A DNA stretch of 64,000 nt. Origin: an uncultured delta proteobacterium (lineage in GTDB: Bacteria; Myxococcota_A; Polyangia; Polyangiales; Polyangiaceae). The stretch is from NCBI GenBank assembly GCA_963716725.1, contig CAVQUB010000032.1, positions 64,001 to 128,000 on the forward strand, written 5' to 3'. Position 1 is the stretch's first letter. Each line of letters starts with the position of its first letter. The notes under the pieces were generated by a model. That model was given only the letters and a program-made list of their open reading frames with translations. It was not told the origin of the DNA and ran no database searches. Made by a program: the position numbers and the translations under genes. This document shows, piece after piece, positions 1-23,531 of the stretch.

Positions 1-726
1 TGCGACGTGGGCCAGCTGCCATCGGATCCATCGATGGCCGCCCGACTTCAACGCGAGCCGCCGCTCGCCGCCCTCGCCTACGAGATCGCGCCCCGGTTGC
101 CCGAGCATCTCTTCCCGCGACAAGCCCGTGACCTCTTCGAGCCTGCGGTTCCAGACCTGGATCTCGCCCTCGGCGCCCAGGGCCATCACCAGCGCTGGGA
201 CGGCCTCCACGAGCTCGCGGTGGCGGGATTCGGATTCTTCCAGCGTGGCCGCGCGTTCGGCGCCGCGCACGCTCTTCGACAGTTGGTCGTGGTAGGCGTC
301 GAGCAGGACGGCGAGCTCGAGATCCACGAGCGCGCGAATCGCGGACTCTCCGGCTGTGAACCTGCCTGGCTCGCGGAGCCACACCCGGCGAACCAGCTGG
401 ATCAGGCCGGCGCGAAGTCGAGTGGTCGCGACCAACAACGAACAAGCGGGAAGCCCCAAGCGCACGTACATACTGCCGACGCGCTCGAGGCCTTCGATCC
501 AAGCGTGGTCGTGTGGGCCCGAGAGCGACGTCGCGAGCTGAGCTTCCAGCGCGAGCTCGACGCGATTGGGGTCGACCACCGCGTTTCGCACGATTGTTTC
601 GTGGAATTCTTCCGCGAGGCGGCGAAGCTCCGGAGTGGCGAGGGGCGCGAGCTCCGCCAAGGTGCCCTCGGCGGCGGCATCGAAGCCGACGCAGCGTCGA
701 ATCCGCTCGAAGTCAGCTGGTTCCAT
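1..726 (-). CDS. Globin-coupled sensor (protoglobin domain + PAS), probably a histidine kinase; runs off the left edge of the window
   Basis: Not in ORF track. Manual translation from ATG 726: MEPADFERIRRCVGFD...RLAEEFHETI...GPHDHAWIEGLERVGSMYVRLGLP...VDLELAVLLDAYHDQL, then PAS-like ELVEAVPALVMALGAEGEIQVWNRRLEEVTGLSREEMLGQ. Pattern matches Anaeromyxobacter-type globin-coupled kinases. Confidence 0.85.
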   Translation of the reverse strand, partial: MEPADFERIRRCVGFDAAAEGTLAELAPLATPELRRLAEEFHETIVRNAVVDPNRVELALEAQLATSLSGPHDHAWIEGLERVGSMYVRLGLPACSLLVATTRLRAGLIQLVRRVWLREPGRFTAGESAIRALVDLELAVLLDAYHDQLSKSVRGAERAATLEESESRHRELVEAVPALVMALGAEGEIQVWNRRLEEVTGLSREEMLGQPGRDLVGEGGERRLALKSGGHRWIRWQLAHVA

Positions 727-769
727 CTACGGTCTCGGCAACCCGCGGGCTCTGCTCGCGCGGGTCGCG

Positions 770-1234
770 TCAGGCCTCGGTCTCGGCGGTGCGCACCGTG
801 AGTACCGGACACGACGCGCGTCGCACGACCTTCTCGGCAACGCTGCCCAGGAGCAAGTGCGCAAACCCGCTGCGTCCGTGCGTTCCCATCGCGATCAGGT
901 CGTAGCCATCGCTATCGGCGAGGGTCACGATGGTATGCGATGGGTCTCCTTGCTCGACGCGCGTGTTTGCGATCTCGATGCCGTCCTCGCGCGCCTGAGC
1001 AACGAACTCTCGCATCGCTGCCTGGGCCTGATCGCTAGCGAGCTGTGCGAGTGTCTGCGTCGTGCCCGCCGCCCCGACCATCGCTTCCGGCGCGATGAAG
1101 GCCGGTGCCTCCCACACGTAGAGCAGGTCGATGGTGGCGTTGAAGCTCTTGGCCAACATGGCCGCGTGCTCGAGGGCTGATCGCGAGCAGGCCGAGTAGT
1201 CGACGGGAACCAGGATGCGGCGCAGGTTGTTCAT
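770..1234 (-). CDS. Universal stress protein (UspA family)
   Basis: [11 protein letters not shown]-terminus; [12 protein letters not shown]...[19 protein letters not shown]. Confidence 0.95.
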
Positions 1235-1740
1235 TTGGGATCTCCTTTGAGCGAGGCGTGTTCGTCTGAGCCGTCGCGCTCACCAGGCTCGGTCATCGGT
1301 ATCACCAGCACGGGGCAGGGTGCGAGCCTGACCACGCGTTCCGCCACGCTCCCCAGCACGACGCGTCGCGCCCCGGTGCGGCCGTGGGTCCCAAGCACCA
1401 GCAGATCGACGCCGGAAACCTTCGCTCGCTGCAGGATTACGCCGGAGGCGTCGCCGACCTCGTAGCTCACCGTGACCATCGCGCGGTCCTCGGCCGAGAG
1501 AGGCGCCAGGAACCGCTCGACCTGGGCCTTGGCTTGATCCTCGGCCAGCTCCCAGAGGGGCCGCGGGCCGACCGCAGCCCAGACCAGGATGCTCGGCTGG
1601 ACGTAGGCGGGCACGCTGTGGACGTGCAGCACCTCGAGCGTCGCCGCGAACCGACGCGCCAGGGACAGCGCCGTGAGCAAGGCCGCCCGCGAAGGATCCG
1701 ATGTGTCGATGGGGCAGAGGATGCGACGATAGCCGGTCAC
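1231..1740 (-). CDS. Universal stress protein (UspA family)
   Basis: YRRILCPID...[12 protein letters not shown]...[19 protein letters not shown]; start set at GTG 1740, overlapping the upstream TGA. Confidence 0.93.
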
Positions 1741-2330
1741 GGGGATCTCTCTCGAGCAAGTCTCATGCCGCTCAGGGGCGGTGGTCGGGGACGGCGTAGC
1801 CCTCGGATTCGAGCCAGCCACCGCAACACGTCGAGGGAGCTCAAGATCCCCACCACCTTGCCCGCCTCCGAGACGACAGGAACGCGGTGGACGCCTTCGA
1901 GGGCCATCAGGGCCGAAGCGCGCGCGATGGAGGCGCTAGAAGGCATGGTGAACGCGAGGGGAGTCATCACGTCACGCACGGTCGCGTCCCTGAATTGCTC
2001 GACGTGCATTCCCCGGTCGAGCCGGGCCTGGATCCCGCCGCTGCTCACGGCCGGGCTGCTCCGCTCCAGCGTGTCTCCGCGATCGGCGAAGTCTCGGAGC
2101 AGATCGGTCTTGGACACGACGCCAAGGGCGCGACCCGAGGCGTCCACCACTGGCGCTCCGCTGATCCCACGTTCTAGAAACAAAGCTAGCAGCGCCTCGA
2201 TGCTCAGGTCCGGCGACACCGAGACGACGTGGTGAGTCATCACCTCGGAGACGGGGGTGGTATCGGCTGGACCGGCCTCCTGACCTGCCGGGCGCTGAGC
2301 GGCGCCGACGGATTCCAATTTGGAACTCAT
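1737..2330 (-). CDS. Tandem CBS-domain protein
   Basis: VSEVMT...ISGAPVVD...GVVSKTDL; VRDVMT...VHRVPVV...GILSSLDVL; GAGAGG RBS before ATG 2330. Confidence 0.9.
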   Translation of the reverse strand: MSSKLESVGAAQRPAGQEAGPADTTPVSEVMTHHVVSVSPDLSIEALLALFLERGISGAPVVDASGRALGVVSKTDLLRDFADRGDTLERSSPAVSSGGIQARLDRGMHVEQFRDATVRDVMTPLAFTMPSSASIARASALMALEGVHRVPVVSEAGKVVGILSSLDVLRWLARIRGLRRPRPPPLSGMRLARERSP

Positions 2331-2344
2331 GATGTCATCCTCTC

Positions 2345-2388
2345 GCGCACTGCCTGCGCCGCCAGAGCAACCAGCGCACCCATTGCGC
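2345..2388. promoter_or_regulatory. Paired palindromes GCGCA-N5-TGCGC (putative sigma-54 activator binding sites)
   Basis: GCGCACTGCCTGCGC at 2345-2359 and GCGCACCCATTGCGC at 2374-2388, 29 bp apart. Confidence 0.7.
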
Positions 2389-2423
2389 AGGTCTGCTTCG
2401 ACGCCGTCGGCGAAGGCCCGAAT

Positions 2424-2439
2424 TGCAAGTGTCGAACCA
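2424..2439 (-). promoter_or_regulatory. Sigma-54 -24/-12 promoter for the CBS-USP-USP-globin sensor operon
   Basis: Minus strand TGGTTCGACACTTGCA (GG-N10-GC). Confidence 0.7.
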
Positions 2440-2455
2440 GGGCATGTACGTTGCA
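2440..2455 (+). promoter_or_regulatory. Sigma-54 -24/-12 promoter for the CBS gene at 2501
   Basis: GGGCATGTACGTTGCA (GG-N10-GC), back-to-back with the divergent promoter. Confidence 0.7.
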
Positions 2456-2500
2456 TCGTATCAGCGCTAGAACCGCGCACGGAAGAGAGGATTTCGAGCA

Positions 2501-2917
2501 ATGGTCGTCCAAGAAGTCATGACCGAGGATCCGATCACCGCACAGTCCAGCACCGCCATCGGGACAGTGTTGAACACTCTCTTCGAGAGCGACGTCAGGC
2601 ACCTGCCCATCGTCGACGGCGATCAGCTCGTTGGTATCGTGAGTGATCGCGACCTGCGCGCATTCCTTGCCCCGTCAATGCTCGAGTTCGAAAAGCCCGA
2701 GGACGTGCGCAAGCGCCTGGCTCAGCCGGTGTCCACCGTGATGAACGCGGACGTGGTGAGCGTCACTCCCGAGACGGACTTGTCCGAGGTCATCGAGATG
2801 ATGATCGATCAGAAAGTCGGCGCCGTACCCGTCGTGCAGCCGGGAACCGACGAGCTGGTGGGCATCGTCAGCTACATCGACGTACTTCGGGCGGCCCAAG
2901 ACCTCTTCGAAGAGTGA
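2501..2917 (+). CDS. Tandem CBS-domain protein
   Basis: VQEVMT...VRHLPIVD...GIVSDRDL; VSTVMN...VGAVPVV...GIVSYIDVL. Confidence 0.93.
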   Translation: MVVQEVMTEDPITAQSSTAIGTVLNTLFESDVRHLPIVDGDQLVGIVSDRDLRAFLAPSMLEFEKPEDVRKRLAQPVSTVMNADVVSVTPETDLSEVIEMMIDQKVGAVPVVQPGTDELVGIVSYIDVLRAAQDLFEE

Positions 2918-2939
2918 TCCGGGCGTGCGGTCGCGCCGC

Positions 2940-3893
2940 TCACGCGGCCGGCCACGCGATGCGATGCTGCGGCTCGTAGCCCAGTTGGTCGCGAGCGCGG
3001 CGACCGTCGAGCACGGCGCTGAAATGGAAGCGCCGATGGTTGAGATCGTAGCGGAAGTCCATTCCGAGCGCGTTTGCGCGCAGGGCGTAGAGCGGTGCCA
3101 GTAACGGTCCCGGCACCGGGACCTCGAGCCGACCCCAGAGTCGGATCGCGGACGAGAGCGGTAGGACGTCGGCGCCAGGGACGTTGAACACGCCGTTGGT
3201 CCGGCCGCTCGCGGCGAGCACGAGCGCCCGGGTGGCGTCCTCGAGCGAGAGCAGGTTCAGCATGGGGTCGAAGCCGAGGGGCCGAAAGCACACTCTCGAG
3301 GAGAGGTAGTCGTGAAGCTGGCTGCCGACGTTCGCGGCCAGGATTTCCGCGCAGCGGAGCACCACCACTTCCAGTCGCGACATGCCCATGCGTGTGCACA
3401 CCGTCAGGTCTGCCTCCACGCGATCTCTCACTTTCTGCGGCGCGCTCGGGGAGAGATCGAGCGGGTCGTCTTCGACGAGCAGCGTGGAACGGCGCGGGTC
3501 CAGGCGGTAGACGGCGCCGGCGCTTCTAAACACGAAACGCCGGATGCTGGGGTGGCGCTCGGCCAAAGCCAGGAGCTGGCGGGTACACTCGACGTTCAAA
3601 GCGTGAACGCGGGCGCCCTCGGCGCGAGCGCGTCGGTGCAGCGCGTTGTGAATGATCACCTCGATCCCGAGCTCCCGCGCGTCCGCGAAGAGGAGGTCGT
3701 GAAGCTCCCTCGAGCGCGTCAGATCCACCTGTCGATAGCGGTAGCGCGCCGAGGCCTGGCCCCCCAGCGGCATCGGATCGGGCTCGGCGCCGACGGCGAG
3801 CACCAGCTCGGTAGCCGGGTCGGCCAGCAGCGCGCCGATCAGCTGACCGCCGAGGGGCGTCGTCGCGCCCGTGACCAACACCCTCATCGTCAC
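2940..3893 (-). CDS. NAD-dependent epimerase/dehydratase family protein (atypical extended SDR)
   Basis: MRVLVTGATTPLG Rossmann start; NVECT, FVFRSAGAVY, GVFNV; canonical YxxxK not evident. Confidence 0.85.
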   Translation of the reverse strand: MTMRVLVTGATTPLGGQLIGALLADPATELVLAVGAEPDPMPLGGQASARYRYRQVDLTRSRELHDLLFADARELGIEVIIHNALHRRARAEGARVHALNVECTRQLLALAERHPSIRRFVFRSAGAVYRLDPRRSTLLVEDDPLDLSPSAPQKVRDRVEADLTVCTRMGMSRLEVVVLRCAEILAANVGSQLHDYLSSRVCFRPLGFDPMLNLLSLEDATRALVLAASGRTNGVFNVPGADVLPLSSAIRLWGRLEVPVPGPLLAPLYALRANALGMDFRYDLNHRRFHFSAVLDGRRARDQLGYEPQHRIAWPAA

Positions 3894-4726
3894 CAGAGTC
3901 CCTCCCTCTGGGCGAGTCCACGGGAGATGAGCGTCTGGACGGACTCCTTGACCACGCGCGCTGCGTCCCGCACCGCGGTCGGATCGTCGGCATCGCCGAA
4001 ACGCTCCGACAGTAACAGTGGCTCGCCGTAGTGCAGGTGGAGACGCACGGGCAGGGGCAGCGGGGTGGCGGGAATGGGCAAGAACGGTGCGCCGAAGGCG
4101 TGAAACGAGTCGATGCGTCCGATCCCGGGCCAGGCTTCCTCGGCGCCCACCACGGCCACCGGGATCACCGGCACGCGATGACGGAGCGCGAGCTCGGCGT
4201 GGCCGACTCGCCAGTCCTGGAGCTCGTAGCGCTTGCGAAACCCCTTGCCGATGCCGGGCACGCCCTCGGGGAACACCAGCACGAGTTCACCGGTCTCGAG
4301 CAAATGGCGGAAGTTCCCAGCGCTCCCGGCCACGACGCCCAGCCGGCTGAAGGTCGTGCCCACCCAGGGCAGGAGCGGGATGAAGATGTCGCCGATGACG
4401 CGGGCGACTCGCGGCGGCGATGTGCGGCGGGCCACGTCTGCCACGATCATGGCGCCGTCGATCGGCAAGAGGCCGCCGTGGTTGGCCGCCAGGATCGCGG
4501 CACCGGTCTTCGGCAGGTGCTCGGCGCCGTAGCTGACCACTCGGAAGTAGCGTTCGTAAGCGAAGCGCAGGACCCCGAGCGCGGTGGAGAAAGCCGTGGG
4601 ATCGAAGCCCAGGACGTCGAACCCGTGGCCCGCGTCGTTGAAGGCGAGCCGTCGCAGAGCGTCGCGCTGTCCCTGGTCGAGCAAGGCGCGAGAGAGCGAT
4701 TGGTGGATACGGCGGCGGAGAGACAT
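3890..4726 (-). CDS. Lysophospholipid acyltransferase (PlsC/DGAT-like)
   Basis: ANHGGLLPIDG (NHxxxxxD), VFPEG, VPVIPVAVVG; start at ATG 4726. Confidence 0.9.
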   Translation of the reverse strand: MSLRRRIHQSLSRALLDQGQRDALRRLAFNDAGHGFDVLGFDPTAFSTALGVLRFAYERYFRVVSYGAEHLPKTGAAILAANHGGLLPIDGAMIVADVARRTSPPRVARVIGDIFIPLLPWVGTTFSRLGVVAGSAGNFRHLLETGELVLVFPEGVPGIGKGFRKRYELQDWRVGHAELALRHRVPVIPVAVVGAEEAWPGIGRIDSFHAFGAPFLPIPATPLPLPVRLHLHYGEPLLLSERFGDADDPTAVRDAARVVKESVQTLISRGLAQREGLW

Positions 4727-4731
4727 GGAAG

Positions 4732-5565
4732 CTAGAACCGCGGCCCTGCCGGGCTGGTCAGCAGCAAGCTGCAAGGTGCCGAGCGGAGCAGGCGCTCGGC
4801 GGTCCCACCGAGGAACACCCTTCGGAGGCCGGCAAGTCCGGTGCGACCGAGGATCAGCAGATCTGTCCCCTCTTTCGCCGCCAGCTGTCGAAGGGCTTCG
4901 TCCGCTCGGCCCGACGCGCTGCGGAGCGAGCCGAGCAGGTTCGAGCAACAGGTGCTTTCCACGAACTCGTTGACCTGCTCCAGGCGCGCGTCGAGGTCTG
5001 CCCGCTCGTCGGGGCGGGCCGTGAGCATGGGGTCTTCGACGACGTGCACCACCGTGGGGGTCGCAGCAAACCGCTCGCAGAAGTCCGACGCGAAGACCAA
5101 CGCCTCACGCGATGCGGCGGATCGATCGACCGCTACCATCACGCGGGCCAGGCCGGGCTCGCGCCTTGGACGGCTAATCCAGACCGGCTGCCGGGCAAAG
5201 CGTCCGACGGTTGCGGCCGTGGCGCCGGTGCCGGCGTCGCCGCTGGCGCGGTCTCCGGCCCCAATCACGATCAGGCTCGAGTCGAGGGCCTCTGCGGTGT
5301 GGATCAGGGCTTCGGCAGCGCTGCCCTGGGTCACCCGTTCTTCGCCCACGCTCGCTCCCGCGGCGAGTAGCGCCTCGCGCCAAACCGCGAGTTCGCGCCG
5401 TGAGCGAGCATCGTCATCGGAGCTCGTCCTCGGATAGGGCGGGTGCACATGCACGACGTCCACCGGCACCGAATACGCTCGCGACAGCATTGCCGAGTCG
5501 AAGCGAGCCAACTCGGCGGCCTTGCCGAAATCGGTGGCGAGGAGGATTCGAAGCAGTCCGGCCAT
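4732..5565 (-). CDS. Tandem-domain universal stress protein
   Basis: RILLATDF...LIVIG; RVMVAVD...DLLILGRTG...LGGTAERLLRSAPCSLL. Confidence 0.9.
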   Translation of the reverse strand: MAGLLRILLATDFGKAAELARFDSAMLSRAYSVPVDVVHVHPPYPRTSSDDDARSRRELAVWREALLAAGASVGEERVTQGSAAEALIHTAEALDSSLIVIGAGDRASGDAGTGATAATVGRFARQPVWISRPRREPGLARVMVAVDRSAASREALVFASDFCERFAATPTVVHVVEDPMLTARPDERADLDARLEQVNEFVESTCCSNLLGSLRSASGRADEALRQLAAKEGTDLLILGRTGLAGLRRVFLGGTAERLLRSAPCSLLLTSPAGPRF

Positions 5566-5579
5566 GGACAATCGACCTT

Positions 5580-5595
5580 AGCAAGGCATACGCCA
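5580..5595 (-). promoter_or_regulatory. Sigma-54 promoter for the USP-acyltransferase-epimerase operon
   Basis: Minus strand TGGCGTATGCCTTGCT (GG-N10-GC). Confidence 0.65.
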
Positions 5596-5636
5596 CTCGG
5601 ACTCGAGGGGAATCGCCTTCGAAGCGGCGTTGGTCC

Positions 5637-5682
5637 CCGCATCGGTTTCCGGCTGGGCGCTCGTCTCCCGCAAAGATTACCG
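5637..5682. promoter_or_regulatory. Paired degenerate activator sites
   Basis: CCGCATCGGTTTCCG (5637-5651) and CCGCAAAGATTACCG (5668-5682), 31 bp apart; the first differs by 1 nt from the site at 22412. Confidence 0.5.
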
Positions 5683-5712
5683 CCCCTTGCCCCCGATGAG
5701 CGCGCCGGGCGA

Positions 5713-5728
5713 TGGCAAGCGTCTCGCA
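5713..5728 (+). promoter_or_regulatory. Possible sigma-54 promoter for the His-motif lipoprotein
   Basis: TGGCAAGCGTCTCGCA (GG-N10-GC). Confidence 0.5.
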
Positions 5729-5767
5729 ACACTGTATCGTGTCGGTCCTACGTTGCGGAGGCACACT

Positions 5768-6109
5768 ATGTCGAGTTGGATGCGGGGTTCTGTGGTCGCG
5801 GTCGCGGTCGTGGTTGGCGTTGCCGCGCTGGCGGTGGGCTGTGACAAGGGTGAGGGCGCCGCCGGAACCAAATGCGGAAACGGCGCTCAGGCGGAGCTCA
5901 CGGGCAACCACGGCCATGCCGTCGAGATCAGCGCCGATCAGATCAAGCGTGGCATGGGTGGCGGGCTGGGCGTGAAGGGTGGGGACCACGAGCACGCGAT
6001 CATGCTCAAAGACGAGGACATGAAGAAGCTGCAGGCGGGAGAGAAGGTGTCGACGCGCACCAGCAGCGTGAACGGTCACATGCACGAGGTGACCATCAGC
6101 TGCAAATAG
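5768..6109 (+). CDS. Small lipoprotein with three HxH motifs (putative metal-binding)
   Basis: GGAGG RBS; lipobox LAVG-C; NHGH, DHEH, GHMH. Confidence 0.8.
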   Translation: MSSWMRGSVVAVAVVVGVAALAVGCDKGEGAAGTKCGNGAQAELTGNHGHAVEISADQIKRGMGGGLGVKGGDHEHAIMLKDEDMKKLQAGEKVSTRTSSVNGHMHEVTISCK

Positions 6110-6116
6110 CCCCGGG

Positions 6117-7175
6117 TCAGCAGATCCGTGGCAGCTGTTCGCCGCTCTGAAGCCTCAGCGGGCGCATCGCGCCGAGGGGGCCCCGGGCGGACACCGAGCC
6201 GCGCGTGCCGCGCATCTTCGTCACGGTGCCGATGCGGACCGCCGCGGACGAGACGGAGTGCGCGCGCAGTGCGGCCAGGCATGCCGCCTCGTCGGCCGCC
6301 GGGACGATGGCCACCATTCGGCCCTCGTTCGCGACGTAGAGCGGATCGAGCCCGAATAGCTCGCACGCCCCCCGGACGGCGTCGTGCACCGGCACCAGGC
6401 CCTCGTCGATCTCCATGTCCACGCTCGAGTCCAAGCAGAGCTCCGCCAAAGCCGAGGCCAAGCCCCCGCGGGTCAGATCGCGCAGGCAGTGCAGGTCGAC
6501 TTTGGCCTCCAGGAGCGCGCGCACGGGATCGACGAGGGGAGCGCAATCGCTCTGGAGGGTGCTCCCGAGCTCGAGTCCGGCGCGCACGCCCATGACCGCG
6601 ATTCCATGGCGGCCGACGTCACCGCTCGCGATCACGGCGTCCCCAGCCTGAATGCGCCCGGGCCGCACGTCCACGGTGTCGCGGACCCAGCCGACGCCCG
6701 CGGTGTTGATGTAGACTCCGTGCCCTCGACCGCGGTCGACCACCTTCGTGTCTCCAGTGACGATGGCGACGCGGCATTCCGCAGCAGCGTCGGCCATCGA
6801 CTGCACGACCCGCCGCAGGCTGTCGAGGGGGAAGCCCTCCTCGAGCACGAATCCCGCGCTCAGATACGCGGGTTCGGCCCCCGCCATGCAGAGGTCGTTC
6901 ACGGTGCCGCACACCGCGAGCGTGCCGATGTCCCCTCCGGGAAAGAAGATGGGGTCCACGACGTAGCTGTCGGTGGTCATGGCGAGTCGGGCGGCGCCCA
7001 CCGGGAGCACGGCGGAATCGTGGCGCGCCACCGGCGCGGAGGAGTCGAAGGCGGGACCGAAGACCTGCTCGATCAGGTCGCGCATCAGCCGGCCACCACC
7101 ACCATGTGCGAGCTGCACGGTGTCGTGACGGAGCGGGGAGGCCGGACAGCTCGGCGAGAAGGGTTCGCGGCTCAT
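6117..7175 (-). CDS. hypE: Hydrogenase maturation protein HypE
   Basis: [33 protein letters not shown]-terminal GEQLPRIC. Confidence 0.97.
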
Positions 7176-8263
7176 GTCGCCGGCCGCCGATACGCGTAGT
7201 ACGCAGCACACGCGCCCTCGCTCGAGACCATGGTCGCACCCAGGGGGTGCTCGGGAGTGCAGCGCGTGCCGAACGCGGGGCAGTCGGTGGGCTTCTCCAC
7301 CCCGCGCAGAATCCGCCCGCTCCGGCACTCCGCCGGCTCTTCTGCTCGCACGCTGCCCACGTCGAAGCGGCGCTCCGCATCCAAGGCCAGGTATTCCGCG
7401 CGGAGGCCCAGCCCGCTCGCAGGGATTTCGCCGATGCCGCGCCACTTTCGCGGGACCACCTCGAACACGGAGTCGACCATCCGACGCGCATCGGCGTTGC
7501 CGTGCTCGGCGACCGAGCGCGCATACTGATTTTCGACCTCGTGGCGCCCGCTCTCGAGTTGCTCGACGCACATCAAGATGCCCTGGAGTAAATCGAGGGG
7601 TTCGAAACCCGTGGCGACGATGGGAACGCGGAAACGCTCGGCGATGGGCCGGTACTCGTCGAGGCCCATCACCGTGCACACGTGTCCGGCGGCGATGAAC
7701 GCATCGACCGTTGCCTCGGCGTCCGACAGGATGGCCAAGAGCGCGGGAGGCACCAGCACGTGGGACACCAGGAGCGAAAAGTTCGCCAGCCCTTCGCGCT
7801 TGGCGAGATGGGCGCACATGGCGATGGCCGGCGCGGTGGTCTCGAAGCCAACGGCGAAAAACACGACCTCTCGCTGGGGGTTTTCCCGGGCGACGCCCAA
7901 GGCGTCGAGGGGGGAGTAGACCACTCGGACGTCGGCTCCGCGGCTCTTGGCCCCGAACAAGTCGGAGGTCGAGCCGGGGACCCGGAGCATGTCGCCGAAG
8001 GAGCACAGGATCACGCCGGGCTTTTCGGCGATGGCGATCGCGCGCTCGATCATCTCCAGCGGCGTGACGCAGACCGGGCACCCGGGCCCGTGGATCAGTG
8101 TCACGCGATCCGGGAGCAGCTGATCGATGCCGAAGCGCACGATGGAGTGCGTCTGGCCTCCGCAGACTTCCATGATGCGCCAGGGGCGGGTCACCGTCGT
8201 TGCGATGGTTTCGGCGCAGCGTTGCGCCAGGGCGGGGTCTCGGAACTCGTCGATGAGCTTCAT
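7172..8263 (-). CDS. hypD: Hydrogenase maturation protein HypD
   Basis: [37 protein letters not shown]. Confidence 0.98.
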
Positions 8264-8499
8264 GGATCGAGCTCCGCGAGGTTGCCCAGAGCCGCGAGGT
8301 GCTCGAGCGTTCGGCGGGCTTCTTCTTGGTTGACGACGCTGATGGCGAAGCCGACGTGAACGATGACGTAGTCGCCGACCTTCACCTCTGGCACGTAGGC
8401 CAGGCAGACCTCCTTCTCGATCCCGCCGAAGGCCACGCGTCCGGACGCAAGCGTGCCGGGGACGACGCTCAGGACCTTTCCCGGGATGCCAAGGCACAT
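8260..8499 (-). CDS. hypC: Hydrogenase chaperone HypC
   Basis: MCLGIPG...[13 protein letters not shown]. Confidence 0.97.
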
Positions 8500-8566
8500 A
8501 CGCTCCGGATAGCAGAGCTCCGGAGAAATGACACGGGCTCGGGCCCGAGCGCCGAGAGCCTTGGCC

Positions 8567-9895
8567 TCAGGACGGGCCCTGACCCTTGCACAGCGCCAAG
8601 ATTTGAAGGTCGGCGTTCGGACTGCCTTGCACCGCAGTGCAGGTGTTCGCACAGAGCTTGATCTTGGTGCCTTCGATGTAGAAGGCGTCCTGGGTGCAGG
8701 CGGCGGCGTTCGCGACCTGGGTGATCTTGGTCGGACTGCCGCCTTGCGGAGTGAACTCGATGCTGATGGTCGCGGGATCGATCTCTTTGCCCTGGGGTGG
8801 TTCGGGCAGGTCGAAATCGCAGGCGATCGACGCGCTCTTGATCACGCCCTTGGCGATCTCCTGGAACACCACGTCGAACCCCTGGCCCTCGCACACCGGG
8901 AATTTGATGCCGCCCGTCATGTTGCTGAGCCACTGGTAGCCGGTGCCGGGGCCGGGCGCGGTGCTGCACTTGCTGGTGGAGACCGGGTCGGTGGCCGCCC
9001 AGGATTTGTTCGGGCTGCCCGGGTTCGCCCCGACGCCGACGATGCTGTACCAGGTGTAGTTGCGATTGGTGGAGTCGCCGAATTGCGCTGGGTCTCGGGC
9101 CAGGAGGTCGGCGTCGAACTTCTCGGCCGCGGTCTTGCCGGCGGCGACCTGATCGCTGTCGTTGTAGCTCCACTGGCCCCGGGTGCAGCTGATCCCGTCG
9201 TCCGTGATCTCGACGAAGGCCTTGAAGGCTTCCGGACGGAGCCACTCGCGCCAACCGGTCTTTGCCAAGTTGTAGCGGTCGGGTTTGTCGTACCAGTCGA
9301 TCATCTTGCACCACGAGTCGTGGCTCTCCACGTCGTTGTTGTCGTAGTGGTAGAAGATTGGCGGGTTGTTCACCGGCGGCTGGTTTGCCGCCACCGGGCA
9401 CTTGGTGCCACCCAGCGGTGCGCCGATGCAGATCGACTCGTCGGGATTGGCGGGGCCTTGTTCGGCGATGAACACGACGCGGTAGTCCACGCCCGACGCC
9501 TTGATGATCTGGGCAAAGTTCGTGTTGATGTTCTTCTCGATGGCGATGATCTCGTCCGTCATGCTGCACGAGTTGTCGAGGATGAAGACCACGTCGACGG
9601 GCTTCTTCTCGAGCTTGGCAGAGTACTTCTGTAGGTCGCAGGCCGCGTCTGGGTCGATGCCGGTATCTGCTGGCCCGGAGTCGATGACGATACCCGCGCC
9701 GCTGCCACCGTTGCCGCTGGCTGAGCTGCCGCCCGAACCTCCGCTGCCACCTCCCGCAGCGGTGCCGCCACCGAAGGAGTTGTCGGCGGTGCCACTGTCG
9801 GTGCCGCTGCAGGCCGCGGCGAAGGCCGAGCCGATCAACACGCCGGCGGCCGTGGTTCCAAGTGTGCGAAGAGTCAGCAGCGACCGTGAGCTCAT
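8567..9895 (-). CDS. Myxobacterial vWA-domain lipoprotein with Gly-rich linker and Cys-rich C-terminus
   Basis: AAAC lipobox; DVVFILDNSCSM (MIDAS DxSxS); ITDD; C-terminal CDFDLPEPP...IKLCANTC. Confidence 0.85.
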   Translation of the reverse strand: MSSRSLLTLRTLGTTAAGVLIGSAFAAACSGTDSGTADNSFGGGTAAGGGSGGSGGSSASGNGGSGAGIVIDSGPADTGIDPDAACDLQKYSAKLEKKPVDVVFILDNSCSMTDEIIAIEKNINTNFAQIIKASGVDYRVVFIAEQGPANPDESICIGAPLGGTKCPVAANQPPVNNPPIFYHYDNNDVESHDSWCKMIDWYDKPDRYNLAKTGWREWLRPEAFKAFVEITDDGISCTRGQWSYNDSDQVAAGKTAAEKFDADLLARDPAQFGDSTNRNYTWYSIVGVGANPGSPNKSWAATDPVSTSKCSTAPGPGTGYQWLSNMTGGIKFPVCEGQGFDVVFQEIAKGVIKSASIACDFDLPEPPQGKEIDPATISIEFTPQGGSPTKITQVANAAACTQDAFYIEGTKIKLCANTCTAVQGSPNADLQILALCKGQGPS

Positions 9896-10001
9896 GCTCG
9901 CCTCCGGGTTTGTGGGCGGGTCGGCCCAAGCCAACCGCCAGTGTAGCGGAATACTGGGGCAGGGCAGCCCTGGCCGCGCCAAAATTGCGCTATCTCGGCG
10001 C

Positions 10002-10037
10002 CTGGGCGTCGCTGGGCGTCGCTGGGCGTCGCTGGGC
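10002..10037. repeat. Intergenic 10-bp tandem repeat (GCTGGGCGTC) x about 3.6
   Basis: ctgggcgtc gctgggcgtc gctgggcgtc gctgggc. Confidence 0.9.
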
Positions 10038-10119
10038 CCGCGCTTTGTCGCTTCGCGGACTCGGGACTTGACCGTAGCTCCCGGCGACTGTTTCCTCCCG
10101 CGCCAGAGAGACCTTCACC

Positions 10120-11750: not shown

Positions 11751-11753
11751 CGG

Positions 11754-14015: not shown

Positions 14016-14034
14016 GGCTGCCAGCTTCTCACAT

Positions 14035-14376: not shown

Positions 14377-14378
14377 GG

Positions 14379-14828: not shown

Positions 14829-16127
14829 TCAGTCCTCCTGCTCCAGGTTCAGACGCAGGAAGTGGGTGGAACACGAGATGCACGGGTCGTAGTTGCGGAC
14901 GGTCTGCTCGGCCAGGCGGGTCGCGGCGTCGTGCGGCATGTCGGCCAGGCGCTTGGCGATCGTGAACAGGTCGTCCTCGATGGCCTTCTGATTCTGGGAG
15001 GTCGGAGGAATGATCTTCGCCTCCTCGATCAGGCCGTCGGCGCTGACGCGGTAGCGGTGATAGAGCGTGCCGCGCGGCGCCTCCGTGGCGGCCATGCCGA
15101 CTCCGGCACGGTTGGGCACGGGGACCCTCGAGACAAGAGGCGGCCGGTACGCCTCGATGATGGCGATAGCTTCGTCAAAGGCCTGAATGGTTTCTACCCC
15201 GCGTACCAGCAAGGTCTTGAAGGGATTTGCCACGGGAGGAACCAGACCGATGGACTCGGCGGCTCGCCGCGCGAAGGGCCGGAGCTCGTCGAAACACAGG
15301 TTGAAGCGCGCCAGCGGGCCCACCACGTAGGCGCCATGACCCAGGTGCACCGAGTGCAGCGCCGTCGAGCGCGCTACGTGCTGCTCCTCGAAGTGTTTCT
15401 CGTAGTCGTGCACGTCGATGTCGAGGCCACGATTCGAAACTAGGCGGCCCTCGCAGAAGGGATACTCTTCGGGGTGCCTCGTGCTGACCAGCTCCACCGG
15501 CCGTTCGAAGTCGGGGAAGGGCAGGCCGGCCAGCGTGGGCATCGCGTCGGCCAGCGCTTGCCTGGACCACGACAGCTCTGGCAAGAGTCCACGTAGCTCC
15601 GCCGCCGTCGGCGCGCGGTAGAAGCCGCCGACGCAGACGTTGATGGGATGGATCTCCCGCCCACCGAGCAGGTTCACGATGGCGTTGCCGGCCTTCTTCA
15701 TCCGTAGCGACGCCTTGACCAGGTCGCCGTGATCCTTTGCCATGTGGATCGCGTCCGGGTAGCCGAGGAAGTCCGGCGCGTGCAGCATGAACATGTGCAG
15801 CACGTGGCTCTCGATCCACTCGCCGCAGTAGAGCAGCCGCCGCAGCGTGCGAAGCTCGGGGGGGAGTGTCAGACCCACTGCGTCCTCGATGGCGTGGCAG
15901 GCGCTCATCTGGTAGGCGACCGGGCAGATGCCGCAGATGCGAGCCGTGATGTCTGGGGTCTCGAGCTGCGAGCGACCGATCAAGAAACCCTCGAAGAAGC
16001 GCGGCGGCTCGAAGATCCTCAGCTCGACGCTCTTTGGTTCTTTGCCCTTGAAGCGAATGGTGAGCGCGCCCTCGCCCTCGACGCGCGCCAAGTAGTCGAC
16101 CTTGATGGTGCGGGCGTTCTTGGTCAC
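14829..16127 (-). CDS. hyhL: Group 3b [NiFe]-hydrogenase (sulfhydrogenase-type) large/alpha subunit
   Basis: [16 protein letters not shown]1 [14 protein letters not shown]2 [10 protein letters not shown] followed by a cleavable C-terminal tail; start GTG 16127. Confidence 0.95.
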
Positions 16128-16918: not shown

Positions 16919-16921
16919 CGC

Positions 16922-17746: not shown

Positions 17747-18213
17747 CCGAGCTCCGACTTGTACACGTCGAGTTGTTGGAGACGCGCTTGCGTCAGACGG
17801 TCGGAAGCACAGGCCAAGAGCTTGAGCGTGAATGCATAGCCAAAGCTGGGATCGGCCTGCACTTTGCCGCGGATACAGTTCGCGTCGAAGCTGAAGACGA
17901 GCGTCGGCTCGAGGGCGCGGGCGTCCAATTGCCAACGGAAGGGTGGCAGGAGCACTGACCAACCAACGATGTCTCCGGAACTGGCGGTGTCGACCTGCAG
18001 CGACCCTCGGCCGGGCACGTGAGTCTCGATGGCCACGGAACCGCTGCGCACCAGGAACATCGCGTCGGCTAGCGAGCCCTCACGCACCAGGTAGTCGTCG
18101 GCCTCGTAGCGCGCGTTCTTGGCACAGCCGGCCAGGAACTCGACCTGGGCTTGAGTGAGCTCCTTGCAGAAGGGGTGCTCCGCTAGTGAACGGGCGAGCG
18201 ATTCGGGTTTCAT
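17743..18213 (-). CDS. Stand-alone cyclic-nucleotide-binding domain protein within the hydrogenase operon
   Basis: HPF...[18 protein letters not shown]...GDIVGW; no HTH; ATGA overlaps on both sides. Confidence 0.88.
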
Positions 18214-19331
18214 GATGCCTTCTCCGGTCTTCGAAGGGAGGCGATGTGCGCGGCCTCTTCGGTGATGTCGATGCCCGTCGGGCACCAGGTAATGCAGCGG
18301 CCGCAACCGACGCAGCCCGATGAGCCGAACTGCTGGTGCCAGGTCGAGAGTTTGTGGGTGATCCACTGCCGGTAGCGAGCGCGCGTGCTGGGACGTACGG
18401 GTCCCCCGTGGATGTAAGAGAAGTCCGAGGTGAAGCAGGAGTCCCAGCGACGCCGGCGTTCGGCGCCCGTACCATCGAGCTCAGTGAAGTCTTCGATGGT
18501 ATTGCAGAAGCACGTGGGGCAAACCTGCGTGCAGTTGGTGCAGGCGAGGCAGCGTTGCGCGACGTCGGCGTAGCGCGGATGGTCGAGATCCCGAGCCAGC
18601 TTCTCCGGGAGCCCGACGCTCTCGAGCCGGCGAGTGATGCGCTCGGCCGCGACGATGGGAACCTTGGCCGCATGGACGCGATCGATCACGTTGGCGGCCG
18701 TGAGCCCGAGCTCCCTCACCAAGGTCACCCCGATCGCGCTGCCGGTCTCCACGATGAAGCGGTGCTCGCCGGTCGTCAGCTCGGTCAGCGCGAGATCCCA
18801 CGGGCCGTCGGCCCGGGGACCCGTGCCCATGGATGTGCAGAAGCAGCTCGCCGATGGGGAGCCGCAGTGTACTGCGACCACTATCACGTCGGAGCGCCGC
18901 GCCGCGTAGCGTTCATCGCGGAAGCGGTCGCCCTCGAAGACTCGATCCTGGATCCGGAGCGCCGCAAGATCGCAACCGCGGGCTCCGAGCAGCGCCAGCT
19001 TTCTGGGCGCGAGGGGCTCCGGGGTGAAGCGCAGCGACTTGCCCTCGCGGTGTACGCGATAGAGGCGCTCCTCGGGCACGTGGAACTGACGCTTGAACGA
19101 GGTCGGACCCACCGCGAACCCGAACAATGCCCGGTCGTCTCGCTCCACGATGCGATAGCGCCCGGGAGCTTGCTCGTCCGTGAGGCCGACGGGAAGGTCG
19201 GTGTCGCTCTCCACGGAGTCGTAGGTGATCGCACCCTCGCGCAGTGTCGGCCCGATCACGTCGTAGCCCCGAGCGCGCAAGGCGCTCATCAGCTCACCGA
19301 TTCGAGAACGTGGGAGCAGCCAGGCGTCCAT
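18210..19331 (-). CDS. hyhB: Group 3b hydrogenase beta subunit (4Fe-4S dicluster)
   Basis: [43 protein letters not shown]. Confidence 0.94.
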
Positions 19332-19372
19332 GGTCAATCCTGCGCGGGGTGAACGAACATGCGCGCGACCGT

Positions 19373-19388
19373 TGCAGGGCGCGTGCCA
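19373..19388 (-). promoter_or_regulatory. Sigma-54 promoter of the hydrogenase operon
   Basis: Minus strand TGGCACGCGCCCTGCA, one mismatch to TGGCACG-N4-TTGCW. Confidence 0.78.
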
Positions 19389-19420
19389 CCGCCAGGGAGT
19401 CGAGTTTCCCGCGGCGCGGG

Positions 19421-19465
19421 GTCGAGAGCTTGCGTCGGAGCGGTCCCAGCGCGCAAGGTATGCGC
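19421..19465. promoter_or_regulatory. Activator site GCGCA-N5-TGCGC plus a half-site 30 bp away
   Basis: GCGCAAGGTATGCGC at 19451-19465; GTCGAGAGCTTGCGT at 19421-19435. Confidence 0.68.
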
Positions 19466-19473
19466 GACTTGTC

Positions 19474-20676: not shown

Positions 20677-20736
20677 GTCAGGGGGCAGCTCCGACGCCCG
20701 GCCATGCTGTCCGCGGGCTCGTGTACCCTCGGCTCG

Positions 20737-21527
20737 GTGAGTGTCTTCGCGTCGCTGTCCCTTGAACCCTGGGTCGTGGCCACGCCGGGCCTCCGCCCGC
20801 GTCTGGCGGAGCGTGTCCTCGGCTTCGAACGGGACTCTTTGCGCTGGTACGATCCGACGCGGTGTTCCAGTGAACGATTCCTGGACCAGCTCGAACGCAT
20901 CGACGAACTCACCTTCGGTCCCCTCGGTCTCCGGATGCCCCGCTGGGCCTTCTACGACTGCGCAGAGTTGCCGGGCGCATTGTTTGGCTTCGGCGCTTCG
21001 AGGGCGCATCTCCCGGAAAGCGTGCGGGCTCGGCTGCCGGACGCGGGGCCGTTCATGCCGATCAGTATGTGCATGGCGACGCCCATGGTGCGCCCCGACG
21101 AGTGGCTCACCTTCTCGATTTCGTCGTTGCTCGACTTGGAGCCCGGACCTGACGCCGTCAGTCTCGGCGTCGAGACGCTGGCGCTCACGCTGGCAGCGCT
21201 GCGCCCGCGACGCGTGCACGGCACGATGCAGTGGCGCTCGCCCAGCCTGGCAGTGCACGCTCGCTTCGCACCGCTCGAGGTGCGCGCAGCGTGGGTTCCC
21301 GCGCACACCCACGCGGCGACCTGCGTCTTTGCTTTCGACGTCGATGAGGGCCTCATCGAGCGCGCTCTGTCGCGACCGGACCTCACCACCGGCCGGGGCA
21401 CGATCGTCGATCCCGAAGACGCGGCCGGACTCGAGGAGCTCCAGCGGCGGATCGAGGCGGGCGGATCGCTGAGGCTGCTCGGCGCGACACCTTCGTCACT
21501 GGCCTGCGTTGCGTGGGGGATCCATGA
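20737..21527 (+). CDS. Hypothetical protein, paralog of the next gene; natural stop at 21527 needs one extra base in the G run at 21515-21519
   Basis: Shares TFGPxGxxMPRWxFxDxAELPG, QW, HxRxxPL and AWxPAH with 21524..22390; homology ends near 21480. Confidence 0.75.
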
Positions 21528-22390
21528 CGACCCTCGCACTGGCCAACTCCGCGCTCTCTGCTCGCCTCCGGCCCTTCGTGGTGGCCCTCGAAGAACACCG
21601 CGCCGAGTTCGACTGCGGCGCGTTCGGCTGGGTCATTGGCCGGGAAGACCGCTTGGATCCGCTGCGGCTCGCCTCAGTCCGCTTTCTCGAAATCCTCCGG
21701 CGGCTGGACGCGGCCACCTTCGGTCCCGAAGGCATGCCCATGCCGCGCTGGGTCTTCTTCGACGGGGCGGAGTTGCCCGGCGGCATCGTCGGCTTCGGGG
21801 CCGACGCGGGAACGCTGTCCCTTCACACTCGGCAGCTGCTCGAGGTCGAGGCGAGCTACCAAGGGCTGGTGCCCCTCTCGATGTTCATTGCGATCCCCAC
21901 CCACGAGCCCGGAACCTGGATGGCGCACAACCTCGCCAGCATGGCGCCGCAGGTTCCGGACGAAGCGCTGCAGGGGTTGGGCGGATTGACCAAGGCCTAT
22001 GGACTTCGGGTCTACCGTGTGCGGCGTCAGATCGGCGCGACCCAGTGGAACTCGAGCGCGCTGTCGATCCACACCCGGCTGGGCCCTCTCGATCTCGCGA
22101 GCGCCTGGACACCTGCGCACAGCGAGCCGTGGACCCTGACCTACGGTGTGGACGTGACCGAAAGCGCCCTGCTCAATCTTGCGCGTGACGCTGCGGGAGC
22201 CGTGGAGACACCGTCCGTGGATCTCTGGATCGACTCCGACGACCACGCGGCGATGCGCGATCTCCAAGCACGCATCGAGTCGGGGGAACGCTTCCGAATC
22301 GTGGGCAAACCCCAGCGCGTCGCACAGAAGCGACTGCGCGTGCCCGTGGGCATCGTGCCGCCGGTCGGGTCTCCGGCCGGCGCCAGATGA
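21524..22390 (+). CDS. Hypothetical protein, possibly divergent GNAT fold
   Basis: Clean ORF from ATG 21524; ALQGLGGLTKA...QWNSSALSIHTRLG resembles GNAT motifs A and B. Confidence 0.8.
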   Translation: MTTLALANSALSARLRPFVVALEEHRAEFDCGAFGWVIGREDRLDPLRLASVRFLEILRRLDAATFGPEGMPMPRWVFFDGAELPGGIVGFGADAGTLSLHTRQLLEVEASYQGLVPLSMFIAIPTHEPGTWMAHNLASMAPQVPDEALQGLGGLTKAYGLRVYRVRRQIGATQWNSSALSIHTRLGPLDLASAWTPAHSEPWTLTYGVDVTESALLNLARDAAGAVETPSVDLWIDSDDHAAMRDLQARIESGERFRIVGKPQRVAQKRLRVPVGIVPPVGSPAGAR

Positions 22391-22411
22391 GGCCCGGCCA
22401 GGTCTGGGCGG

Positions 22412-22456
22412 CCGCATCGGTTGCCGCCGGGGCCGTCGCGCCTGCACTCTTTGCGG
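22412..22456. promoter_or_regulatory. Paired degenerate activator sites
   Basis: CCGCATCGGTTGCCG (22412-22426) and CTGCACTCTTTGCGG (22442-22456), 30 bp apart. Confidence 0.55.
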
Positions 22457-22488
22457 GCGCCCCGGGCAGTGGACGCGCGTTTTTCTCC

Positions 22489-22504
22489 TGGAACGAAGCT
22501 TGCT
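22489..22504 (+). promoter_or_regulatory. Sigma-54 promoter
   Basis: TGGAACGAAGCTTGCT (GG-N10-GC). Confidence 0.72.
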
Positions 22505-22520
22505 CCGACCCCCGTCTGCC

Positions 22521-22775
22521 ATGACCACCACCCAAAACCTCAAGAGCACGTTGGAAAAAGAGCTCGGCGACCTCGCGCAGCTTCGAGACGAAATCCGAGT
22601 CAAGGTTCATTTGGCGGGCCTCGACGCCAAGAGCGCGTGGAAGGAGCTGGAGCCGCGCTTGGACGAGCTCGAGCGAGATTTCCGAGTTGAGAGCGCCGGC
22701 GTCAAGGACGCGAGCCTGCTGCTCGCGCGGGATCTGAAGTCCGCGTTCGAGCAATTCCGCTCGCGTCTGGTCTGA
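22521..22775 (+). CDS. Small helical/coiled-coil hypothetical protein (84 aa)
   Basis: MTTTQNLKSTLEKEL...LRDEIRVKVHLAGLDAKSAWKELEP; good codon usage. Confidence 0.8.
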   Translation: MTTTQNLKSTLEKELGDLAQLRDEIRVKVHLAGLDAKSAWKELEPRLDELERDFRVESAGVKDASLLLARDLKSAFEQFRSRLV

Positions 22776-22793
22776 ATCCGCGGGCGGTCGCCA

Positions 22794-23531
22794 ATGCCAC
22801 GCACAGTCAAGGAGATCATGAACGGCGAGCTGTTCAGCTTGCGTACCCACGACGCCGCCGCGCAAGCGCTTGGATACATCGTGGGGCTCGGGATCACCGC
22901 GGCCCCCGTGCTCGACCAAGACAAGAAACCGGTGGGGATGGCGTCGTTTCGAGATCTGCTGAGGTTGCCGACCCCGGCGACGGTGGCGGAGTGCATGACC
23001 TCCCCCGCGCTGACGCTGCGATCCGACGCGCCAGTGGAAGAAGCCGCGCGGCTCTTGACCGAGCGTGGCGTTCACCGGGTCGTCGTCGTCGACTCCGACG
23101 GACGCGCCGTCGGCATCGCCTCGGCCCTCGACGTGATTCGCGGGCTCTTGGGTTTGCCAGCGCTGCACCCGTCGGCGTTCCCGCATTGGGACTCGACGCG
23201 AGGCGTTTCGTGGTGTGACGACACCTTGCTCGAAGTCGATCGGTTGGACGCCGCGCCGGACGCTCCCGGAGCGTTTGCGCTGATCCGCGGGGGGAAGGGG
23301 ATTGAAGAGCGCGTGGTGTGGGCAGAAGCGGCCCACAACGTTCGCACCCGACTCTACGACCTCTTGGCGAGACCGCAGAGCGAGCAGCCGATGCTCGCGC
23401 GGCTGCTCGAGAGTCACTCGGATTTGCGGTTTAGAGCTGCTGCGATAGCGAGGGCCGACCGGCGAGAGTCCGTCTCGGAGTCCTTGATGGGAGAAGCGCG
23501 TTCGGCGCTAGCACCTACGAGGGCAGAGTGA
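22794..23531 (+). CDS. CBS-pair protein with C-terminal extension
   Basis: TVKEIMN...AAPVLD...TVAECMT...VHRVVVVD...GIASALDV. Confidence 0.87.
   Translation: MPRTVKEIMNGELFSLRTHDAAAQALGYIVGLGITAAPVLDQDKKPVGMASFRDLLRLPTPATVAECMTSPALTLRSDAPVEEAARLLTERGVHRVVVVDSDGRAVGIASALDVIRGLLGLPALHPSAFPHWDSTRGVSWCDDTLLEVDRLDAAPDAPGAFALIRGGKGIEERVVWAEAAHNVRTRLYDLLARPQSEQPMLARLLESHSDLRFRAAAIARADRRESVSESLMGEARSALAPTRAE

Follow-up and report, generated by a model that had tools for sequence, protein, structure and literature searches.

A predicted NmpR-family, sigma-54-dependent regulon that joins a group-3b-type hydrogenase to CBS and universal stress proteins in an uncultured member of the Polyangiaceae

The DNA analyzed here, referred to as the window, is a 64,000-nucleotide stretch of an uncultured Polyangiaceae genome (C32:64001-128000 of assembly GCA_963716725.1, called G000 below; contig CAVQUB010000032.1). 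Its first 23.5 kb (positions 1..23531) probably constitute the core of an NmpR-family, sigma-54-dependent low-oxygen regulon, with binding sites and promoters that are predicted. Four control regions in this part of the window share one architecture, and this shared architecture is real: the repeat type (G/C)CGCA-N5-TGCG(C/G) is present twice in each of the four, with the two copies 29-31 bp apart. A system of this kind is known from Myxococcus xanthus. What is new is its cargo, which includes a group 3b hydrogenase, pyruvate:ferredoxin oxidoreductase (PFOR), and neutral-lipid genes, together with a degenerate paralogue of the regulator at the syntenic position and a fused sensor kinase with an atypical heme pocket.

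The G000 assembly comprises 7,886,190 bp in 35 contigs (67.6% G+C) and is rated 84% complete. Genes were called with a codon-usage score trained on the long open reading frames (ORFs) of G000, and proteins were annotated via Pfam and NCBIfam. Where relatives of its proteins have names, they are metagenome-assembled genomes of Polyangiaceae. For comparison, we used G028 and G106, two near-complete genomes from the same genus, in which the cluster is syntenic and the proteins are 60-90% identical; since orthologous proteins have diverged to this degree, the alignments are not of recently transferred, near-identical DNA. The matrix used to score sites was symmetrised and derived from 19 distinct sites, extracted by coordinate from the window and from orthologous positions in the same-genus genomes. 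Promoter positions are counted by assigning -12 to the C in the GC element.

An earlier note on this DNA had placed six GG-N10-GC sigma-54 boxes and eight 15-bp sites, paired at 29-31 bp, in four intergenic regions. All six boxes were recovered within 1 bp of the positions given there, at 2425-2439(-), 2440-2454(+), 5581-5595(-), 5713-5727(+), 19374-19388(-), and 22489-22503(+). All eight sites were recovered as well, and three of them (2345, 2374, and 19451) are, as claimed, exact matches to GCGCA-N5-TGCGC. The remaining five (5637, 5668, 19421, 22412, and 22442) are degenerate, with 3-4 mismatches each; the GCA-N5-TGC core is intact at 22412 and 22442. Start-to-start spacings within the four pairs are 29, 31, 30, and 30 bp, corresponding to gaps of 14, 16, 15, and 15 nt. 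The three exact sites exceed both backgrounds that were used, since shuffled sequences yielded a mean of 0.55 (with 3 of 100 shuffles reaching three), and the 55 exact sites of the whole genome predict 0.16 per 23.5 kb (Poisson P(>=3) = 6.5e-4). In addition, 2345/2374 is the sole pair in the genome with <=1 total mismatch over all spacings between 15 and 80 bp. When pairs with <=3 total mismatches were counted across the genome, no clean peak appeared at 29-31 bp, because 3-bp coding periodicity dominates the counting of such weak pairs.

The region between the divergent genes CBS1 and CBS2 contains the strongest pair in the genome by matrix score (2345-2359 and 2374-2388, both exact, with a 14-nt gap), followed by back-to-back divergent -24/-12 promoters for the CBS1 operon (2439->2424, minus strand; predicted start, ~2413) and for CBS2 (2440-2455, plus strand; predicted start, ~2466). 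The 33-bp block formed by this double promoter is fully conserved in the three genomes except at two spacer positions, and both sites persist in G028 and G106 on either side of a spacer that drifts in the alignment. The bidirectional region 5580..5728 combines a minus-strand box (5595->5580) and a plus-strand box (5713-5728), with the degenerate sites 5637-5651 and 5668-5682 between them; both boxes and both sites are positionally conserved in G028 and G106. In the hydrogenase control region (19373..19465), the box (19388->19373, minus strand) is accompanied by a degenerate proximal site (19421-19435) and an exact distal site (19451-19465). The hyhB promoter of G106 repeats this layout despite a different neighbouring gene: next to the box are a site with 2 mismatches and an exact one, 29 bp apart at ~-67/-96. 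The fourth region, 22412..22504 on the plus strand, precedes the genes for a small protein and a CBS-pair protein. It holds the second-best pair in the genome (22412-22426 and 22442-22456) upstream of a box at 22489-22504, and both sites and the box are conserved in G106. The motif is kept upstream of orthologous genes in G028 or G106, amid flanks and spacers that diverge, a point that the earlier note had put forward as decisive for its proposal.

At five of the six promoters, the predicted start is preceded by the centre of the proximal site at a distance of 64-85 bp, in agreement with the arrangement at the validated Myxococcus promoter. The two site centres are at -64/-95 for 5713(+), -66/-96 for 19388(-), -66/-96 for 22489(+), -75/-106 for 5595(-), and -85/-114 for 2440(+), and the predicted starts themselves are at 2413(-), 2466(+), 5569(-), 5739(+), 19362(-), and 22515(+). 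Several predicted starts lie 0-6 nt before a start codon (5565-5569, 22515-22521, G000:C15:505610, and L074:6896-6899 of G106); either these mRNAs have no leader or translation in fact starts further downstream. Parts of the region are represented in assembled metatranscriptome contigs from three runs of one study. Among the RNA-library contigs listed, some cover 727-2412 in pieces, with ends at 2403-2412, and others cover CBS2 from 2480/2487 to 2920/2923. Contig ends close to the predicted starts at 2413 and 2466 are a weak hint of expression.

A genome-wide motif scan, which the earlier note had proposed, revealed a pair enrichment that is specific to the 29-31-bp spacing, intergenic, and promoter-facing. 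Eleven of the 12 best matrix pairs at 28-32 bp are intergenic, 3 of those in training regions. With the four training regions left out, spacings of 29-31 bp gave 19 pairs, of which 10 were intergenic and 5 had an outward-facing sigma-54-like box 55-90 bp away. The other 42 spacings within 16-60 bp gave 184 pairs, 29 of them intergenic and 1 with such a box (Fisher test for 29-31 bp versus the rest, p = 6e-4 for the intergenic share and p = 2e-5 for the promoter-linked share). The promoter-linked candidates are genes for a wax-ester/triacylglycerol synthase of the WS/DGAT type; a P-type cation ATPase whose gene diverges from that of a tandem universal stress protein (USP); a CBS protein; an uncharacterised protein encoded ahead of a glutaredoxin-like protein and a SulP transporter; and a small Nitro_FeMo-Co-family protein. 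The layout of the WS/DGAT promoter recurs in G106, and strong pairs are present in G106 and G028 upstream of the cbb3 cluster and of a canonical nmpR gene. No sigma-54-like box was found at the intergenic pairs upstream of a hemerythrin operon (C9:252914) and of nirS (C18:16700) or at the pairs C13:146602, C13:298870, and C9:218074, and these five are left unassigned.

The consensus, which the earlier note had ascribed to NmpR, is indeed the one reported for M. xanthus NmpR, which binds GCGCA-N5-TGCGC with a preference for a 14-15-nt gap and needs a sigma-54 site (PMC11841059). NmpR activates the operon in which nmpR itself lies and which a CBS gene heads, as well as a USP gene, ccoI-cbb3, hemN-hemerythrin, nmpUTS, and pilR, and the CBS gene mxan_4236 is hypoxia induced (PMC11841059); a further paper covers the NmpRSTU system (PMC6211767). 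A Myxococcus-type locus in our comparison set (L054) reproduces the 14-nt and 24-nt gaps described in PMC11841059, and the site centres at its CBS promoter are at ~-74/-103. This locus (BNCN01000004.1) is titled Comamonas sp., yet it has the full Myxococcus-type CBS-nmpR/nmpUTS layout and spacings, so its label and content do not match.

The Polyangiaceae system resembles that of M. xanthus in having the same consensus, paired sites at a 14-16-nt gap, sigma-54 promoters, a regulator operon headed by a CBS gene, USP targets, a protoglobin kinase, and a conserved recognition helix. It differs in its host class (Polyangia) and in the added group-3b-type hydrogenase and hyp genes, PFOR, and neutral-lipid genes. 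Furthermore, the syntenic regulator has lost its GAFTGA and ATPase motifs, a canonical copy is encoded elsewhere (by the cbb3 genes in G106), a single globin-PAS-kinase fusion stands in for NmpU, NmpT, and NmpS in G000 and G028, and the autoregulated operon has its sites downstream of the promoter.

The earlier note had suggested looking for an NtrC/NmpR ortholog to the left of the window. An NtrC-type response regulator (P0001) with an NmpR-type HTH domain is encoded there, although it lacks the GAFTGA and Walker motifs required of a sigma-54 activator. P0001 has a REC-AAA+-HTH_8 architecture (Response_reg, 105 bits; HTH_8, 41 bits). Its receiver domain is intact and retains the phospho-acceptor residues: D11, D12, D55, and K105 are invariant in both regulator alignments, and T83 is invariant in the one that includes the L054 regulator. 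The L1 (GAFTGA) loop, the preceding ESELFGHE segment, and the second (L2) insertion are all deleted, the Walker A lysine is replaced by arginine, and Walker B reads ED versus the canonical DE. The Sigma54_activat match scores 62.5 bits, compared with 161-249 bits at 44 other places in G000. Since GAFTGA and intact Walker motifs are missing, P0001 cannot be a sigma-54 activator. Nine aligned relatives, with identities as low as 48%, show the same deletions, whereas five canonical relatives have the loop; this conservation indicates a maintained subfamily rather than a decaying gene.

In the alignment, the recognition helix of P0001 is the NmpR helix, in common with the Myxococcus-type regulator of L054, and P0001 is the sole protein with an NmpR-type HTH in G000. 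Its structure, predicted with confidence (mean pLDDT, 83; AAA+ blocks mostly 85-95), is closest to Brucella NtrX, which also lacks GAFTGA and whose chains are 28-29% identical to P0001; NtrX is also the top NCBIfam match. Among species representatives, the degenerate form turned up in no other genus (2 of 120 other genomes of the family and 2 of 400 other genomes of the class were positive); because the scan of the class scored four candidates per genome, the form is to be regarded elsewhere as not found rather than absent. A related-locus search with the P0001-subfamily alignment returned canonical NmpR-type loci at <=43% identity, none of them degenerate.

P0001 is one of several REC-AAA+-HTH_8 proteins that miss the sigma-54 contact loop, along with NtrX, VpsR, Caulobacter NtrC, and Rhodobacter capsulatus NtrC. 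It is not an ortholog of these regulators; it arose within the NmpR lineage and keeps the NmpR recognition helix. The canonical NmpR proteins of G028 and G106, in contrast, are 469 amino acids (aa) long, score ~250 bits for Sigma54_activat, have GAYTGA, and carry the same recognition helix as P0001. In G106, canonical nmpR directly follows the cbb3-ccoI-CBS genes.

Upstream of P0001 in the same operon is the gene for a 488-aa protoglobin-PAS-HisKA-HATPase kinase (G000:C32:63260-64726, minus strand; Pfam), whose N-terminal 242 codons occupy window positions 1..726. Its globin part matches the AfGcHK globin domain (5ohe, E = 7e-14), with a Pfam protoglobin score of 38 bits versus 105-110 bits in NmpU-type proteins. 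Like AfGcHK and NmpU, the protein has a protoglobin domain fused to a HisKA-HATPase kinase; unlike them, it has an inserted PAS domain, an NmpS-type kinase core, and swapped residues at the His99/Tyr45 positions. In AfGcHK, His99 ligates the heme and Tyr45 is the distal O2-stabilising residue (PMC8697598); the heme-ligating residue of NmpU is H96, based on the result with H96A (PMC11841059). The corresponding residues are His/Phe in G028 and His/Tyr in the NmpU-like protein of G106.

The G106 locus (L073:10091-13488) encodes an NmpU-like globin kinase, an NmpT-like double receiver, and an NmpS-like receiver-PAS-kinase before the degenerate regulator, and the single globin-PAS-kinase of G000 and G028 replaces this three-gene relay. 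Compared with the G106 proteins, the kinase half of the fusion shares 76% identity with the NmpS-like hybrid kinase, and the globin half shares 42% with the globin of the NmpU-like protein. With one fused kinase, the inverting step that the M. xanthus model includes drops out. The globin sensor of the earlier note is present as a protoglobin kinase encoded in the operon, but since the His99/Tyr45 positions are altered, direct O2 sensing by this kinase is uncertain. Judging from the sequence, the swap could mean a His/Tyr-ligated heme and a signal other than O2.

Several observations weigh against reading this region as the core of an NmpR-type regulon. The GG-N10-GC class is not enriched (72 matches with <=2 mismatches in the window, compared with 61 +/- 7 in shuffles), so the weight of the sigma-54 boxes comes from their position and conservation. 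Unlike every NmpR-bound site of M. xanthus, the sites at 5637, 5668, and 19421 have a broken GCA-N5-TGC core. The promoter of the CBS1 operon, 2439(-), has its two best sites downstream of the predicted start, at ~+32/+61. The tandem USP at the candidate on contig C21 has no ortholog in the same-genus genomes at E <= 1e-60. In the kinase, Tyr87 (466-468) occupies the position of AfGcHK His99 and His42 (601-603) that of Tyr45. Canonical nmpR, its neighbours, and the cbb3 cluster were not found in G000, which is 84% complete, and PF04552 and PF04963, the families of rpoN, had no match in this assembly. The matrix was trained in part on sites from related genomes, the gene caller is a crude, home-made codon-usage scorer, and the RNA evidence consists of assembled contigs of one study, among those listed.

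The absence of rpoN and canonical nmpR is probably an assembly gap of ~200 kb (C1:2.64-2.85 Mb of the G106 chromosome) rather than a true absence. Genes sampled across C1:2.64-2.83 Mb of G106 are mostly without a G000 ortholog, and the two genomes become syntenic again on contig C14 of G000, 4-7 kb short of its end. Given that the assembly also lacks rpoN and the ~200 kb around it, the absence of canonical nmpR is not informative.

If the region is the core of an NmpR-type regulon, the programme would be on when respiration is oxygen limited; the cell would dispose of electrons as H2 and store carbon as neutral lipid, a pattern shared with the DosR regulon of mycobacteria. The activator would be a canonical NmpR (REC, AAA+ with GAYTGA, and HTH), encoded with rpoN in the ~200-kb region missing from the assembly. 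P0001 would be its sigma-54-blind paralogue, most likely binding the same sites and damping or gating the response, whether through competition, through mixed oligomers, or through a block on its own operon at the +32/+61 sites, and it may be under the control of the fused globin-PAS kinase.

We tentatively take this one step further, to a two-regulator switch on one enhancer, which we regard as a possibility more than an expectation. Canonical NmpR would fire the promoters, and P0001 would serve as a phosphorylation-gated decoy that provides negative feedback, partly via the +32/+61 sites in its own leader; the decoy would be made from the most strongly regulated operon with a rewired kinase, the NmpU-NmpT-NmpS relay having collapsed, here and in G028, into one fused kinase with swapped His and Tyr.

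It is also conceivable, if rather unlikely, that P0001 is the only NmpR-type protein of this organism. It could then be a repressor or anti-activator of sigma-54 promoters that are fired by another enhancer-binding protein, or a regulator of hidden sigma-70 promoters in the manner of NtrX or R. capsulatus NtrC. P0001 is, after all, the sole protein with an NmpR-type HTH in the assembly and sits in the nmpR position, in a CBS-headed operon and, in G106, next to nmpUTS-type genes. Its fold and best NCBIfam match are those of NtrX, and the best sites lie in the leader of its own operon. NtrX and R. capsulatus NtrC are GAFTGA-less regulators that act with sigma-70, a kind to which Caulobacter NtrC and VpsR also belong. 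However, G028 and G106 carry a canonical paralogue with the same helix and with sites upstream of its own gene, the lack of this paralogue from an assembly without rpoN and the surrounding ~200 kb says little, and the -65/-95 upstream geometry fits enhancer activation. Given that the predicted P0001 sites are at sigma-54 promoters and that a canonical sister exists, an antagonist is suggested rather than a sigma-70 activator.

Slightly less probable is that the regulon is real and responds to a signal other than oxygen, such as redox or energy state, nitric oxide or carbon monoxide (NO/CO), or entry into stationary phase or development. The atypical heme pocket of the kinase (Tyr87/His42 for His99/Tyr45) and its PAS domain are compatible with such a signal, as are the sensing of nucleotides by CBS and USP proteins, as argued in PMC11841059, and the effect of NmpRSTU on M. 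xanthus development. Yet the cargo is typical of oxygen limitation, with a group 3b hydrogenase, PFOR, candidate sites near nirS and hemerythrin genes, and a pair upstream of cbb3 in G106; G106 also keeps a standard NmpU-type globin kinase with His and Tyr, and the M. xanthus target is hypoxia induced. The low-oxygen programme of the earlier note stands as an NmpR-type regulon with DosR-like content wired through sigma-54, and hypoxia is the part of it that we infer. It is very improbable that GC-rich intergenic DNA gave rise to the architecture by chance, since the unenriched boxes, the weakness of five of the eight sites, and the 3-bp coding periodicity of the pair counts are outweighed by the conservation of sites and boxes in two other genomes, the uniqueness of the 2345/2374 pair, the spacing control (p = 2e-5), and the functionally coherent genes adjoining independent matches.

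The earlier note had also drawn a parallel to the mycobacterial DosR regulon, and this parallel is supported: the group 3b hydrogenase Hyh and the Tgs synthases of mycobacteria are DosR regulated (bioRxiv 10.1101/2023.09.11.557286), and a WS/DGAT gene is among the candidates here. The two regulons have in common USPs, CBS proteins, a group 3b hydrogenase, and a triacylglycerol synthase, with a heme-based kinase atop both (DosS/T in mycobacteria). The regulators differ, in that DosR is a NarL/LuxR-type protein at sigma-70 promoters, whereas here an NtrC-family HTH is paired with sigma-54. A cation P-type ATPase also belongs to the DosR regulon. The likeness is one of convergent content, not of homologous control.

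The genes of the region bear out the USP/CBS and hydrogenase content that had been claimed for it. The main minus-strand operon runs from 2330 and encodes CBS1 (a CBS-pair protein, 1737-2330), two USPs (1231-1821 and 770-1234), the protoglobin-PAS-histidine kinase, P0001, a third USP, PFOR, and a DHODH-like protein; the rest of the kinase gene and the genes for P0001, the third USP, PFOR, and the DHODH-like protein lie to the left of the window. The genes at 770..2330 are syntenic with those of G028 and G106. CBS2 (2501-2917, plus strand), also a CBS-pair protein, appears to be monocistronic. The minus-strand operon 2940..5565 is headed by a tandem USP (4732-5565), followed by a PlsC-type acyltransferase (3890-4684 or 3890-4948) and an NAD-dependent epimerase/"male sterility" reductase-like protein (2940-3893), and it is syntenic in G028 and G106. 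These assignments are all from Pfam.

On the other side of the bidirectional region is a gene for a predicted 113-aa lipoprotein whose translation has three His-x-His motifs (5768-6109, plus strand). It has no Pfam or NCBIfam match, and orthologs are present in G028 and G106. The gene adjoins hypE and lies behind the conserved predicted sigma-54 promoter at 5713; its product may be a periplasmic metal (nickel?) binder. The hypE, hypD, and hypC genes for maturation of the [NiFe] centre (6117-8499, minus strand; Pfam) have neither a site pair nor a sigma-54 box that we could find, with a single site nearby at 9976, and hypCDE are accordingly not claimed as members of the regulon. Between hypC and genes for PhoU-like and PitA-type phosphate transporter proteins is a gene for a predicted lipoprotein of ~440 aa (8567-9898, minus strand) with a Gly/Ser-rich linker and many Cys residues, which is 86% identical in G028 and has no Pfam or NCBIfam match. 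The lone site (9976-9990, 1 mismatch) is in the divergent region between this gene and the PhoU-like gene, followed by three copies of a 10-bp unit at ~10004-10035, and no sigma-54 box was seen there.

The hydrogenase operon hyhB-hyhG-hyhS-hyhL-hycI-hypA-hypF extends from 19337 down to 11754 on the minus strand (Pfam), with hyhB at 18210-19337 and hyhL at 14829-16127. The best NCBIfam matches of its four hydrogenase subunits are to sulfhydrogenase Shy/Hyd A, D, G/C, and B (Pyrococcus type), below the equivalog cutoffs. The large subunit has both CxxC nickel motifs, at residues 65 and 416, and the gene for the hycI endopeptidase adjoins. By these matches, the enzyme would be a group-3b-type, NAD(P)-linked hydrogenase, in agreement with the class that the earlier note had assigned. 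In G106, an 84-codon ORF whose sequence reads like an acyl-carrier protein stands between the sigma-54 promoter and hyhB (L074:6643-6897, minus strand); it is not at this place in the window. A literature search found no paper on a group 3b hydrogenase in myxobacteria, and for Myxococcota NiFe hydrogenases and hypoxia, it listed surveys rather than regulation studies.

Behind the 22412..22504 region are plus-strand genes for an 84-aa protein without a family match (22521-22775) and a 245-aa CBS-pair protein (22794-23531; Pfam), both with orthologs in G106. Two tandem paralogous genes without a Pfam match (20704-22390, plus strand) lie between an alanine-racemase-like gene and this region; the pair is also present in G106, and its first copy was missed by the gene caller.

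If the reading of this region as an NmpR-type regulon is true, the oxygen-utilisation regulon of NmpR extends from Myxococcus to uncultured Polyangiaceae and can recruit fermentative H2 production, PFOR, and neutral-lipid synthesis. The same survival package as that of mycobacterial DosR would then be wired through sigma-54, a convergence in what the regulons contain between two "aerobic" groups of soil bacteria, which bears on the persistence and H2 cycling of such bacteria in wastewater and in soils with fluctuating oxygen. P0001 and the fused kinase would illustrate how enhancer-binding proteins and phosphorelays can be remodelled, and P0001, if it does act as a decoy, would be a naturally evolved dominant-negative enhancer-binding protein.

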